Shown here piece after piece: positions 34,493 through 48,146 of a stretch of DNA of 64,000 bases. Each line of letters begins with the position of its first letter. Position 1 is the stretch's first letter. Source of the stretch: Gammaproteobacteria bacterium (GTDB lineage: Bacteria; Pseudomonadota; Gammaproteobacteria; JABHGC01); assembly GCA_027077805.1 (NCBI GenBank), contig JALWTS010000020.1, forward strand, positions 33,814-97,813, given 5' to 3'. Under the pieces are notes generated by a model. That model was not told where the DNA came from. It searched no databases and saw only the letters and a list, made by a program, of their open reading frames with translations. The position numbers and the translations under genes were made by a program.

Positions 34493-34972
34493 CTACCAAC
34501 AGACTTCCGCAGGATCACCTAATCCTACTTTACTAAGCTTGGCACCTTTCTTATTTTGACTCGCATCCGTTGTATAAGATAACTGTGTACAAACATCATG
34601 GGTTTGATCCGTACCTGCTCTTGGCGTTGCCGTAATGGTATAAAACTGTGGTGGATTGACATTCACTGCTAAATTAATATTATAAAAACCATTTTCTGTG
34701 CGAATCCCCGAACTATCGACACATAAGCCACTATTTCCTGAGCAATTAGGGTAACCCAGTTCATTACCATTTGTAGTATAACGCTTGTTATCCAAAAAAT
34801 ACTGTTCTTGCAAATTAGCAATTTTCAACATTTCCGAAATCGCATCACTACGCCGACTTTTTCTGACTTGATCCAAATAAAGAGGATAAGCGATTCCAGC
34901 TAATAGTCCGATAATCATAATTACCATTAATAACTCAATTAAGGTAAAACCCGACAACTTTTTACTTTTCAT
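34493..34972 (-). CDS. pilE: Type IV pilin (PilE-like), cluster 2
   Basis: Class III signal and prepilin-peptidase site KKLSG|FTLIELLMVIMIIGLLAGIA; 159 aa; last gene of the minor-pilin operon. Confidence 0.8.
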   Translation of the reverse strand: MKSKKLSGFTLIELLMVIMIIGLLAGIAYPLYLDQVRKSRRSDAISEMLKIANLQEQYFLDNKRYTTNGNELGYPNCSGNSGLCVDSSGIRTENGFYNINLAVNVNPPQFYTITATPRAGTDQTHDVCTQLSYTTDASQNKKGAKLSKVGLGDPAEVCW

Positions 34973-35045
34973 GGACTGGCTCCAAAATCAAAGAGACATA
35001 GCATGAGCATGGTATGAACAACTCTCTATGTCTCTTACCATTATA

Positions 35046-37946
35046 TTATTCTTGATGATACCAAAATAACATTTCAGGGTCTTCATCAAATAAAGCACTT
35101 TCAGGCTTACCATCCCCATCATTGTCTTTTTTCAACTCTAAAGTGCCTTCTTGAGTTACTAATCGAGTTTGTTGCTTGCCATTTTCTTCATAATGTTGAA
35201 ACGTCAACTCACCAGGCAAACCCTCTGAGGTATAATCACGACGGCGATCTTCTTTCTCTTCTTTGACAGCAGAGCCATTCCAATAATCAAACGCGGCAGT
35301 TGCATCTTGTAAACTTATCGCATAAAGATGCGAGTAACCATAACCTGATTCATCACAAGTATCCACTTTTGCATCTTTATCTGGTGGCACATAAGTGGTA
35401 AAAAACACGACACCTGCTAAGGTAACCGCTCGATTCCAGAATTTTTCCCCCTTATCTTCTAAATCAATGTACCAACCTTTGCTATTTTTCACTTTGTTAA
35501 TTTCACTTTGTTTAGTAGTCTGGTTATTGCTTAAACCAATAATATTGCTGGTTGCATCATAAAGATCCGATTCTTTTAATGGATAAGGTGCCGTTTTTGA
35601 ATTAAATTGCTGGGTAATGGTGTTTTTATCTTTCAACATATAAAAACGATTTTGAGTATCCATTTTTGTTGCCCCCACATGATCACCTGTACCAATTAAC
35701 AATATATCCGTTTTTTTACCATGAACATAAGTCCTAACTAAATCAATTCTATTAAAAATTCGTCTATCATCGGCCATACTACTATTATCACCAAGACTTG
35801 CAAACTTAAATACTGAACGCTTAACACCACTCACCAGACCACTCGCATTATAAGTTGTTTCCAAATCAACCCGCCAGATATTCGCACCAGTATCACCAAC
35901 ATAAAGTCTATCAGTAACACCATCACCATCACTATCTAAAGTGGTTACTTCAGCAGGAATGCTATCTTTCATATCCCCACCTTTAATAGATTCACCTGCT
36001 TTGACTTGCCATAACAAATTGCCTGTTATTAAATCAACCGCATAAATCCCCATGCCAACTTTGTCATCTGTCCCTACAGCGTTCTCAGTATCTTTATTCT
36101 CATCATACCCACCTGCAAATACCACCGCAAGTTTCACTTGACCAGCACTGTTATACAACTTAGTAATCACGGGTATTGACCAACTTTGTCCCATACCTTT
36201 GTAAGTATTCGCCCATAATAATTTAGGATTATCGCGTTTGTTCCCACTTAAATCTAAGGCATAATAATGTTGACCACCGCGTCTTAAGCCAAAGACGGCA
36301 TAACTTCGATCAGAGCTATCTAAATAATCATCATCACCATTACAACCATCCGTAGGATCACCATTAGTATCACTACACATCATGACTGTAACTTTGCCAT
36401 CCACCCCATCAGGATGTTCCTCTTTTTCCTTATTATTTAATTTATCTAAAATATCGGCAAATTCTATAGATAATTCTGCTCGTCTTTTCGCAGTAATCAC
36501 TCCAGTACTTTGTAATAAGTTTAAAAAAGTATCCACATTTGCTTGGGTAAAAACATGACCATATTGGGTTAAAAACTCAATCACTTCAGGTGATAAACCA
36601 TTAGTAATTGGCAAGGTACTTTGATACATAGGATCATGAATTGCGGCGAGTTCTTTGGGTCCAAAGGCCCATTTTTCCCGCCCATTATTACCATCAAACA
36701 TATGTAAAAACCCTGAATTAGTGCCTGCTAAAATGCGTAATTCTGGATTCGTACAAGTCATACCCGAACAACCGTAATTTAAAACAATGGGTTTAGAATG
36801 AAAAATATCACCAATAATCCATTCTCTATCTTTGCCTAAGGCCCAATCTGCAACACTTGGATCAAGCCCCATTGTTGAAGCCGTAAAAGGCGTTAGATTG
36901 CCATTGACATTCGTATATACCCTACGACTGGTATAACCTTTATTTAAGACTTGATCTTGTAATACCGCACCGACACCACATTTATCAACACCATTACAGT
37001 TTTTATTATTATGTATATCCCAATAAGTACTAGCTGTATCTTTTAACTTATGGCTAGTAGGATCGATCACATCTTGATTATTTTTACCACGTAATTCACC
37101 CGTAGTTGGATCAATTTTTACTTTTTTAATATTACCACGCCAAACGGGTTTACTTGAAGCAGCAAACTCACCCATAAACGCCCAATCCAAATGAGTTGTT
37201 GCATTACTGGTGCTGGCTGAAAGACTTGGTGTCGTCACCGAAGCAGTTTTAAATTTGATTTGATCTAAAATTTCCTGAAACTTGTCTTGCAAGTTACCTT
37301 GACTCGCTTGTAAATAAAAACCACCGCCATTTTTAGCAGTATTTCTTAGTAAGGCTAAATCAATATTTAAACCAACCGTATGAGTCATTACTTTAGGATA
37401 CCCTGATTTATTTTTACTAAAGTTATTGTACATATCATAAGCAGTATTGGTACAAGCCGTAGAACAATTACCGCTATTACAATAACCATCCGACATTAAT
37501 ACAATATGAGCTACCTCACAATCTTCCAAAGGAATTTTAGGCGGATATACCCCCTTAAAATAATCAACAGCGACTTTATAAGTATCACACAAAGGAGTCC
37601 CGCCACCTGTTTGAATATTATTGACGGCATTCTTAACGGATTCATGCAAAGTGGTTACCCGTCTTACTAAGCGCCCATAAGCACCCACAGGATTAACCGC
37701 ATAAGCATTATTATTATGCATTTGCACCACACCATATAACACATCGATATTATTATCAATAATACCTAAAATAGCATTTTTTGTGGTGGCAATGCGACTA
37801 CCACGCATACTCCCTGAATTATCAATTACAAACATTAATTTAGGATCATAAGACCCAAATTCATAAATATCCACATCATCTGCACTCACTTTAAACGTTG
37901 TGATAGAGAACAACAACGTCATTATAAATAAATAATACTTATTCAT
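35046..37946 (-). CDS. pilY1: PilY1-like type IV pilus tip adhesin (966 aa) with N-terminal vWA domain, cluster 2
   Basis: Signal peptide; MIDAS motif VIDNSGSMRG; C-terminal PilY1 domain with EF-hand-like loop DSDGDGVTD followed by RLYVGDTGANIWRVDL (PilY1 signature YxGDxxGNxWxxDL). Confidence 0.85.
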   Translation of the reverse strand: MNKYYLFIMTLLFSITTFKVSADDVDIYEFGSYDPKLMFVIDNSGSMRGSRIATTKNAILGIIDNNIDVLYGVVQMHNNNAYAVNPVGAYGRLVRRVTTLHESVKNAVNNIQTGGGTPLCDTYKVAVDYFKGVYPPKIPLEDCEVAHIVLMSDGYCNSGNCSTACTNTAYDMYNNFSKNKSGYPKVMTHTVGLNIDLALLRNTAKNGGGFYLQASQGNLQDKFQEILDQIKFKTASVTTPSLSASTSNATTHLDWAFMGEFAASSKPVWRGNIKKVKIDPTTGELRGKNNQDVIDPTSHKLKDTASTYWDIHNNKNCNGVDKCGVGAVLQDQVLNKGYTSRRVYTNVNGNLTPFTASTMGLDPSVADWALGKDREWIIGDIFHSKPIVLNYGCSGMTCTNPELRILAGTNSGFLHMFDGNNGREKWAFGPKELAAIHDPMYQSTLPITNGLSPEVIEFLTQYGHVFTQANVDTFLNLLQSTGVITAKRRAELSIEFADILDKLNNKEKEEHPDGVDGKVTVMMCSDTNGDPTDGCNGDDDYLDSSDRSYAVFGLRRGGQHYYALDLSGNKRDNPKLLWANTYKGMGQSWSIPVITKLYNSAGQVKLAVVFAGGYDENKDTENAVGTDDKVGMGIYAVDLITGNLLWQVKAGESIKGGDMKDSIPAEVTTLDSDGDGVTDRLYVGDTGANIWRVDLETTYNASGLVSGVKRSVFKFASLGDNSSMADDRRIFNRIDLVRTYVHGKKTDILLIGTGDHVGATKMDTQNRFYMLKDKNTITQQFNSKTAPYPLKESDLYDATSNIIGLSNNQTTKQSEINKVKNSKGWYIDLEDKGEKFWNRAVTLAGVVFFTTYVPPDKDAKVDTCDESGYGYSHLYAISLQDATAAFDYWNGSAVKEEKEDRRRDYTSEGLPGELTFQHYEENGKQQTRLVTQEGTLELKKDNDGDGKPESALFDEDPEMLFWYHQE

Positions 37947-37984
37947 TTTTATTACCTCACTTACCTATTTTCACTGAAATTGGA

Positions 37985-47450: not shown

Positions 47451-47453
47451 CGA

Positions 47454-47981
47454 CTAACAGTCCGTTTTTTCTGCAATACTTATCTTGCCTGTACGACCAA
47501 CACTTATTGTACGACCATTTACATCTTTATCATTGTCACATAATCCAAACGACAAAACTTTTACTGGTAACGCAGATGGCTTATATTGAATATAGGATGG
47601 ATCTGTCGATTTATCTTTAACCAACAGTAACGACATATTTTTCTCCGCAAAAGATTGATTTACCCTTAGTATCTCATCATCACTAAGATCAAAAATCCCA
47701 TCGCCATCGTCATCTCGAAACACCATCCAACCATCCTCCCAATTGACGCCATGATTACAATTAGCACCATCGGTGCTACGACAAACTGTAACGTATGAAC
47801 CTGAAGTTACCGCATCACTTCGTGCCAAATTTAAACTCATGACTAAATCATTGGCAAAACCAGTAACCCGCTGATTTTTTATCATTGTAGTAAAAGCAGG
47901 AACACCTACCGTTAATAAAATCGCTGCGACTAAAAGGCTGGCCATCAACTCAACTAAGGTAAACCCTGAATGTTTTATCAT
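47454..47981 (-). CDS. fimT: Minor pilin FimT/FimU (GspH family), cluster 1
   Basis: Prepilin leader MIKHSG|FTLVELMASLLVAAILLTVGVP (an alternative upstream Met at 48002 is possible); GspH-like body. Confidence 0.75.
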   Translation of the reverse strand: MIKHSGFTLVELMASLLVAAILLTVGVPAFTTMIKNQRVTGFANDLVMSLNLARSDAVTSGSYVTVCRSTDGANCNHGVNWEDGWMVFRDDDGDGIFDLSDDEILRVNQSFAEKNMSLLLVKDKSTDPSYIQYKPSALPVKVLSFGLCDNDKDVNGRTISVGRTGKISIAEKTDC

Positions 47982-48146
47982 ATTAAACTCTATTATTTGC
48001 ATTCTTTATCTCATTCCATCTAATTTATGAAGATGGTCTTATTATCTATTTTTAGATGATTAAACACAAAAAATCTGTAAAACAGTTCACATTTTGAACA
48101 ATTAATGAAAAAATATACCTTCCTTAGATTTTCGTTGTTTTGTTAC

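Follow-up and report, generated by a model that had tools for sequence, protein, structure and literature searches.

Whether a type IV pilus forms, and what it binds with its tip, depends on the minor pilins together with PilY1. Several bacteria, Myxococcus xanthus among them, possess more than one minor-pilin/PilY1 set (PMC8833165); M. xanthus has three clusters that each encode FimU, PilV, PilW and PilX plus a PilY1 (PMC7541494). Pili form when only cluster_1 or only cluster_3 is present, with a single major pilin and a single machine (PMC7541494). Extension is primed by the complex, which also occurs in extended pili, its position at the tip being the authors' model (PMC7541494, PMC8833165), and one of the sets can operate in a different calcium range by means of an accessory protein (PMC8833165). 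A 2026 survey of 67 Myxococcota genomes arrived at an average of two PilY1 homologues per genome (PMC13190605). In Xylella fastidiosa, paralogues of pilE, pilV, pilW, pilX, fimT and pilY1 are arranged mostly as operons in two genome regions, and mutating one set or the other leads to mostly opposite phenotypes (PMC9956873). Here, we describe two such sets lying head to tail in an uncultured member of the Gammaproteobacteria (assembly GCA_027077805.1, contig JALWTS010000020.1). The window, by which we mean the whole stretch of DNA analysed, comprises 64,000 nucleotides (positions 33,814 to 97,813 of the contig, forward strand); all coordinates below are positions within it.

Thirteen open reading frames (ORFs), all co-oriented on the minus strand, span positions 48002 to 34493 and make up two minor-pilin/PilY1 modules of type IVa pili, arranged head to tail. 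The upstream module, set A (48002-40915), has seven genes, encoding FimT/U, PilV, PilW, PilX, PilY1, a small secreted protein and PilE; the downstream module, set B (40611-34493), has six genes and keeps the order of set A minus the gene in the PilY2 position. We consider it probable, from sequence and by analogy with described systems, that each set is a cognate priming/tip module for type IVa pili, transcribed separately from the other, and that the two offer alternative PilY1 tips. The features are as follows, with protein lengths in amino acids (aa).

47454-48002, minus strand: set A gene 1, FimT/FimU-like (GspH-fold) minor pilin, 182 aa; PF12019 GspH, 53.3 bits, plus N_methyl
46941-47450, minus strand: set A gene 2, PilV, 169 aa; TIGR02523, 84.4 bits (cut-off 52.2), PF22150 plus N_methyl
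46105-46944, minus strand: set A gene 3, PilW, 279 aa; PF16074, 97.3 bits; 4-bp overlap with pilV
45559-46086, minus strand: set A gene 4, PilX, 175 aa; PF14341 PilX_N plus PF13681 PilX C-term; GAVLII motif
41830-45543, minus strand: set A gene 5, PilY1-A, 1237 aa, with signal peptide; PF05567, 197.8 bits
41336-41749, minus strand: set A gene 6, small secreted protein in the PilY2 position, 137 aa; no Pfam or NCBIfam match
40915-41334, minus strand: set A gene 7, PilE-like pilin, 139 aa; PF16732 ComP_DUS fold, 82.4 bits, plus N_methyl
40795-40833, minus strand: intrinsic terminator after set A; 13-bp stem, 10-nt loop, U-rich tail
40612-40914, minus strand: AT-rich spacer between the sets, 303 bp; presumed site of the set B promoter
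40051-40611, minus strand: set B gene 1, FimT/FimU-like minor pilin, 186 aa; PF12019 GspH, 47.6 bits, plus N_methyl
39512-40060, minus strand: set B gene 2, PilV, 182 aa; TIGR02523, 69.7 bits (cut-off 52.2); 10-bp overlap with fimT
38543-39490, minus strand: set B gene 3, PilW, 315 aa; PF16074, 58.1 bits
37985-38530, minus strand: set B gene 4, PilX, 181 aa; PF14341 PilX_N, 31.6 bits
35046-37946, minus strand: set B gene 5, PilY1-B, 966 aa, with signal peptide; PF05567, 38.9 bits (cut-off 28.1), VWA_2, VWA
34493-34972, minus strand: set B gene 6, PilE-like pilin, 159 aa; PF16732, 63.4 bits, plus N_methyl
34456-34483, minus strand: terminator-like hairpin of 12 pairs between the convergent pilE-B and mlaA, from a consensus scan
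48105-49241, plus strand: thiO (glycine oxidase), divergent neighbour of set A; TIGR02352, 300.7 bits (cut-off 250.8)

Compared with M. xanthus, the locus resembles the described case in having several full FimU-PilV-PilW-PilX-PilY1 sets in one genome, with divergent PilY1 N-termini, and in inviting the idea that different conditions might call for alternative priming/tip complexes. It differs in that the M. xanthus sets form separate clusters, each near its own pilY1, whereas the window sets, from a gammaproteobacterium, stand directly head to tail with a terminator between them and a PilE of their own in each. X. fastidiosa is likewise a gammaproteobacterium with two operon-organised minor-pilin sets and PilY1 paralogues, but there the sets occupy two genome regions and are accompanied by three FimT proteins, one of which is a GRxR-type DNA receptor, while the window sets are adjacent.

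Families were assigned in both sets with Pfam and NCBIfam models at their curated cut-offs. The four core minor-pilin families (PF12019, TIGR02523, PF16074 and PF14341) scored above cut-off, in the same order, in set A and in set B. All ten pilin-like proteins possess a prepilin leader ending in Gly (class III signal peptide), and Glu at position 5 (E5) is found in eight of them within the motif G↓F(T/S/G)L(V/I/L)E, being absent only from the two PilX proteins, whose N-termini (G↓AVLII or G↓SALVV) follow the normal PilX pattern. In the case of set A gene 1, an internal Met may be the true start, which would give the leader MIKHSG↓FTLVE. Genes within each set are separated by -10 to 80 bp, the four core genes by -10 to 21 bp; larger gaps occur only 3' of pilY1 (73-80 bp) and before pilY1-B (38 bp), and the 73-bp gap in set B lies where set A has its PilY2-position gene. 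Overlapping gene starts suggest translational coupling in set B. A first-pass annotation, made from the letters of this DNA and a list of its ORFs, had proposed two tandem co-oriented operons with 13 genes, each containing FimT/U, PilV, PilW, PilX, PilY1 and PilE. Every ORF was recovered with the coordinates and size given there, and the profile search of minor-pilin families that it had recommended returned pil-type models above cut-off in both sets. Both an ENA metagenome scaffold of 137 kb and a Logan contig (L001, L002) contain an identical 20-kb stretch (100% DNA identity); since these are independent metagenome assemblies, the arrangement is not an artefact of a single-sample assembly.

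Judged by its sequence and gene order, set A is the lineage's ancestral orthologue of the Pseudomonas aeruginosa operon fimU-pilVWXY1Y2E. It reproduces the order and approximate gene sizes of that operon, as the first-pass annotation had remarked, including a gene in the PilY2 position, and the likeness extends to the thiO neighbour, which also adjoins the fimT-fimU locus of P. aeruginosa. The difference is one of number, with a single set there and two in tandem here. The C-domain of PilY1-A matches that of P. aeruginosa PilY1 (PDB 3hx6) with an E-value of 1.4e-84, and more than 1300 homologues align with the protein over its full length at 40-46% identity, those with names including Legionellales, Candidatus Berkiella, Pseudomonadales and Teredinibacter. 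In an alignment of 25 homologues, residues D49-S53, T379 and D416 of the N-terminal region, which contains the metal-ion-dependent adhesion site (MIDAS)-type motif DDSGSMD, are invariant. The same is true of D920, D924 and D928 in a calcium-type loop of the C-terminal beta-propeller (DVDGDFRVD, 920-928), recognised at motif level only; the pattern Dx[DN]xDxxxD is the reference motif for the propeller calcium loop of P. aeruginosa PilY1.

The order fimT/U-pilV-pilW-pilX-pilY1-(small ORF)-pilE was seen in nearly all of the 80 genome loci kept from a genome scan with a profile of set A-type proteins (PilY1-A). Small ORFs in the PilY2 position of these relatives encode signal-peptide proteins of ~100-130 aa, and three of the five that were sampled matched the Fimbrial_PilY2 model PF14481 (29.1, 24.1 and 17.4 bits against a cut-off of 25). 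Similarity of the 137-aa set A protein to a profile of such same-position ORFs is weak (10.9 bits with filters off, hhalign probability 81%), a point of difference from the P. aeruginosa operon; we tentatively regard it as a positional PilY2 equivalent. Two variations on the A-type layout were also noted among the relatives. Many A-type loci (L005, L006, L008, L013, L016, L017, L024, L025, L027, L029, L030 and L061) have an extra, inverted fimT-like gene directly 3' of pilE, at the place where the window has set B instead. Candidatus Berkiella loci contain an extra PilW-like prepilin gene (~260 aa) between the PilY2-position ORF and pilE (L014, 14124-14912; L051, 14178-14957; L060, 4899-5693).

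Set B is a genuine, deeply divergent second module, and it is most likely an anciently diverged or long-ago acquired one with a shorter vWA-PilY1. It keeps the P. aeruginosa gene order without PilY2, and its PilY1 likewise combines a vWA domain with a propeller, although the P. aeruginosa protein is ~200 aa longer than PilY1-B and very distantly similar to it in sequence. The N-terminal vWA domain carries the MIDAS motif DNSGS, and the C-terminal propeller a calcium-type loop, DSDGDGVTD, at 671-679 (motif level only). By sequence, the match of PilY1-B to 3hx6 has an E-value of 2.8e-5. An AlphaFold2 model built on 20 homologous sequences (mean pLDDT 73.2, pTM 0.70) retrieved the same structure as its best match in a Foldseek search of the PDB (E-value 8e-19, TM 0.63 on target), followed by many vWA domains.

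Homologues of PilY1-B numbered 37 in a search of 5.8 billion proteins, with a best non-self identity of 28-30% in local alignment; over trimmed alignment columns its closest relatives reach up to ~35%. The nearest full-length relative found in metagenomes (930 aa, locus L091 on contig Ga0233443_1005496) is 33% identical. Relatives of PilY1-B occur in stand-alone fimT-pilV-pilW-pilX-pilY1-pilE clusters, one of which adjoins pilMNOPQ (L090), and another relative is found within a large pil locus with pilC, pilSR, pilA, pilD and pilMNO (L085). In L091, a further FimT-PilV-PilW-PilX-PilE set is located some 1.5 kb downstream, and the short contig showed no PilY1 to go with it; this may be a further tandem arrangement, with the B-type set first.

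Minor pilins and the pseudopilins of the type II secretion system (T2SS) have homologous folds and share a four-gene logic, in which GspH, GspI, GspJ and GspK correspond to FimU, PilV, PilW and PilX. Set B could also be read as a group of T2SS pseudopilins (GspH-I-J-K) and not as pilus minor pilins. The shared GspH fold of set B gene 1 and weak sub-threshold matches to GspH, XpsH and XpsI models speak in its favour. However, the equivalog scores fell far under their cut-offs: the GspH model gave 44.6 for set B gene 1 and 27.8 for set A gene 1 against a cut-off of 80, and the best scores were 18 against 130 for GspK and 17.7 against 64.85 for GspJ, the latter on the PilE-like protein. Set B, in addition, reaches the PilV, PilW, PilX_N and PilY1 models and contains both a PilY1 and a PilE. 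Neither gsp core genes (gspCDEFGLM) nor secretin, ATPase, platform, pil machine or major pilin genes were present among the scanned ORFs of the window, which made up about two thirds of those of at least 100 aa. We hold a T2SS identity of set B to be highly improbable. The T2SS-like pseudopilus that the first-pass annotation had kept among its options is disfavoured by the same scores and by the lack of gsp core genes among the scanned ORFs nearby, and set B is pil-type.

The annotation had also described the paralogues as highly diverged, with lengths such as 1237 versus 966 aa for PilY1 and 279 versus 315 aa for PilW, and alignment of the two sets bears this out. Identity between A and B is 29% for FimT, 41% for PilV (over the N-terminal 66 aa only), 23% for PilW, 23% for PilY1 and 31% for PilE; the two PilX proteins have no significant similarity. 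A recent tandem duplication would account for the shared gene order and orientation, and for one 49-nt stretch at equivalent fimT positions that is 73% identical. Against it stand the protein identities of 23-41%, a PilX pair that cannot be aligned, and the fact that PilY1-A is nearer to its orthologues in other orders (44-50%) than to PilY1-B (23%). In a neighbour-joining tree of 33 PilY1 sequences, PilY1-A was placed in the A clade, beside Legionellales/Berkiella sequences, and PilY1-B in a separate deep clade with P0122-P0127; the duplicated PilY1 genes of L033 and L070, unlike PilY1-A and PilY1-B, came out as sister pairs. The separate clades and the low identity indicate that the window juxtaposes two old lineages, and we give next to no credence to a recent duplication, near-identical or otherwise.

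The composition of the two sets is native. In GC content (0.39 and 0.37) and in GC3 they match the housekeeping genes around them. Neither set has direct or inverted repeats or mobile genes at its flanks, and the tRNA-Arg gene sits beyond thiO and not at a set boundary. Whatever joined the sets is, by the native composition and the lack of bracketing repeats and mobile genes, not recent. A recent horizontal insertion of set B was considered and found no support, for the same reasons. The best non-self match of NrdA from the window is 67% identical, and with no closer relative the host appears to be an uncultured, rather isolated gammaproteobacterial lineage of ~38% GC.

Transcription of the two sets was approached through the DNA between them. 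The terminator (40833-40795, minus strand) consists of a perfect 13-bp stem and a 10-nt loop, followed by UUUUCGUCUUUUUAUCUUUU, and its predicted fold of -20.8 kcal/mol (z -6.59) was not equalled in stability by any of 200 shuffles. A consensus scanner had missed it because the loop, at 10 nt, exceeds the scanner's limit of 8 nt. Both the terminator and the AT-rich gap of some 300 bp in the first-pass annotation are thereby confirmed, the gap measuring 303 bp. The annotation's suggestion that the operons are probably independently regulated has the terminator and the gap in its favour, and no convincing promoter was recognised; promoter-like matches in the region were no commoner than in shuffles, that is, at chance level. 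A sigma-54-like element seen by eye (TGGCAG-N5-CCTG) was dropped, as its -12 GC is missing. Because of the terminator and the 303-bp gap, sets A and B are most likely separate operons that are separately transcribed.

The completeness of both sets, their deep divergence, the terminator, and the intact MIDAS and DxDxDxxxD motifs in both PilY1 proteins all support two alternative priming/tip modules. Further support comes from the prepilin leaders of all ten pilin-like proteins, the tight spacing within each set, the matches of both PilY1 proteins to 3hx6, the native composition, the stand-alone pil-type clusters of PilY1-B relatives and the lack of gsp core genes among the scanned ORFs. By analogy with P. 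aeruginosa and M. xanthus, PilX, PilW, PilV and FimT/U of each module would assemble with PilY1 in the inner-membrane pilus machine, and PilE would link this minor-pilin/PilY1 complex to the major pilin. The complex would prime filament extension and then ride at the pilus tip, where PilY1, through its vWA and propeller domains, could serve as an adhesin and a calcium-controlled sensor. A cell might in this way equip its pili with either of two tips, whichever suits the surface or conditions that it meets. An identity of only 23-41% between A and B means that partners are probably cognate within a set, and the strong terminator together with the spacer makes separate transcription of the sets possible. 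From sequence and analogy we infer that both sets are expressed, that they would share one machine, and that they may differ in adhesion or sensing.

Several observations weigh against this reading. A consensus scan found no convincing sigma-70 promoter on the minus strand 3' of the terminator. The PilX C-terminal Pfam domain was not matched in PilX-B, PilY1-B matches the propeller model only in part (PF05567 profile positions 126-286 of 411), and its structural model is of moderate confidence (pLDDT 73). Finally, the cluster_2 proteins of M. xanthus were undetected under laboratory conditions (PMC7541494), which means that a second set can be effectively silent.

Two of these points, the missing set B promoter and the undetected M. 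xanthus proteins (PMC7541494), would also suit a set B that is a redundant or effectively silent spare, kept by drift or rarely used. So would the relatives of PilY1-B, which are few and distant and suggest fast evolution. Yet all six ORFs of set B are intact, with signal peptides, MIDAS motif and calcium loop conserved; codon composition is native, the overlapping gene starts point to translational coupling, and the PilY1-B model folds as a proper vWA plus propeller. We consider a spare set B to be rather unlikely.

A different explanation holds that set B primes a physically different filament, made from another major pilin on the same machine or by a dedicated second machine, such that the cell would have two type IV filaments, for example one for motility and one for adhesion or DNA uptake. 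The strong divergence between A and B fits cognate specificity for different partners, and each set has its own PilE-like linker pilin. For X. fastidiosa, the authors suggest multiple fibres with specific functions (PMC9956873), and a cyanobacterial preprint reports distinct core minor-pilin complexes that prime specialised filaments (10.64898/2026.02.12.705559). On the other side, the scanned ORFs of the window include no major pilin or machine genes, and in M. xanthus a single major pilin and a single machine are shared by the three sets (PMC7541494). DNA-receptor FimT proteins of Legionella and Xylella, moreover, carry a conserved C-terminal GRxR motif (PMC8897410, PMC9956873), and neither FimT of the window has it in its strict form: that of set A ends in ...SVGRTGKISIAEKTDC (GRTG) and that of set B in ...ASGRVKSSDPKQDGGGERQCS, with the conservative variant GRVK. 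A DNA-receptor role for either FimT was rejected on this ground. A second filament is, in our estimate, unlikely. A more elaborate proposal, in which the modules prime two functionally distinct filaments in a deep-branching gammaproteobacterium, the terminator layout acts as a transcriptional selector, and the short vWA-PilY1 of set B is fast-evolving with a new binding specificity, strikes us as doubtful.

Alternative priming/tip modules for type IVa pili, our preferred explanation, would mean that a genome with two very different full sets could in principle exchange the pilus end that adheres or senses while the machine stays unchanged. The locus is a compact example of an ancestral P. aeruginosa-type set beside a deeply divergent one, and could be of use where set specificity is studied comparatively or in a heterologous host. 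It opens no new question, multiple sets being already established in M. xanthus and X. fastidiosa, as is the hypothesis that tip complexes are condition-specific; with the carriage of several sets documented, it is a fairly ordinary example that will not surprise specialists. Our estimate of its interest is lower than that of the first-pass annotation, because multi-set genomes are documented (PMC7541494, PMC8833165, PMC9956873) and tandem sets recur in public sequences, as described below.

The architecture of the window was found in one of the 80 PilY1-A-type genome loci, L004, from an uncultured Ectothiorhodospiraceae metagenome-assembled genome with 54% GC. Here, an A-type set, PilY2 and two PilE are followed by FimT-PilV-PilW-PilX with a 967-aa B-like PilY1, and then by ispH. 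As in the window, an A-type set is paired, co-oriented, with a B-like PilY1 set; the differences lie in the GC content, in the two PilE between the sets with none after the second, and in a second PilY1 that is not sister to PilY1-B. Partial repetitions also occur, with pilX-pilY1-pilE repeated in L033, two pilY1 genes side by side in L069 and L070, and additional PilY1 or pilin genes at most 10 kb away in L028, L035, L049 and L067. In some genomes, for example those of L029 and L035, two clusters lie far apart.

Tandems were commoner among the loci found with PilY1-B relatives than among those found with PilY1-A. Two back-to-back sets follow ileS-lspA-fkpB-ispH in L088, and of the metagenome loci of at least 18 kb, 5 of 21 contain two PilY1 genes, with complete or near-complete double sets in L107, L138 and L169. 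These three and L088 resemble the window in their co-oriented back-to-back sets, but differ in that both sets are B-like. Double sets in several public loci make the tandem layout a recurrent, if minority, architecture.

The pilus genes are flanked by thiO, tRNA-Arg, mlaA, rnt and grx4. The other scanned genes of the window, ordinary chromosomal ones like these, encode an asparagine-synthase-like amidotransferase, CusCBA-like efflux components, nrdA, hisBHAF and ampD/ampE, and an Rfam scan returned tRNA only. Window positions 50866-54628, at a distance of a few kb from the pilus genes, are occupied by a fimbrial cluster of the alternate chaperone-usher (Tcf/CS1-like) type. It comprises a 204-aa ORF without family (50866-51480, plus strand), an usher-like protein of 786 aa (weak TcfC match, E-value 6e-19) and, on the opposite strand, a chaperone-like protein of 234 aa (TcfA, E-value 5.6e-11), and would add another type of adhesive fibre to this region. 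Next to it, a 428-aa ORF (49349-50635, minus strand) has no family assignment and only weak sub-threshold SH3/LSM-like matches at its C-terminus; its listed 3' end overlaps tRNA-Arg(CCT) (49282-49357, plus strand) by a few bases.

Further away, a 653-aa protein (window 958-2919, plus strand) contains a Ser/Thr protein kinase domain of the eukaryote type (PF00069, 118.7 bits). In a 442-aa ORF (window 10922-12250, plus strand), a match to ThyX (PF02511) is limited to residues 18-217, the ORF being about twice as long as the matched domain.

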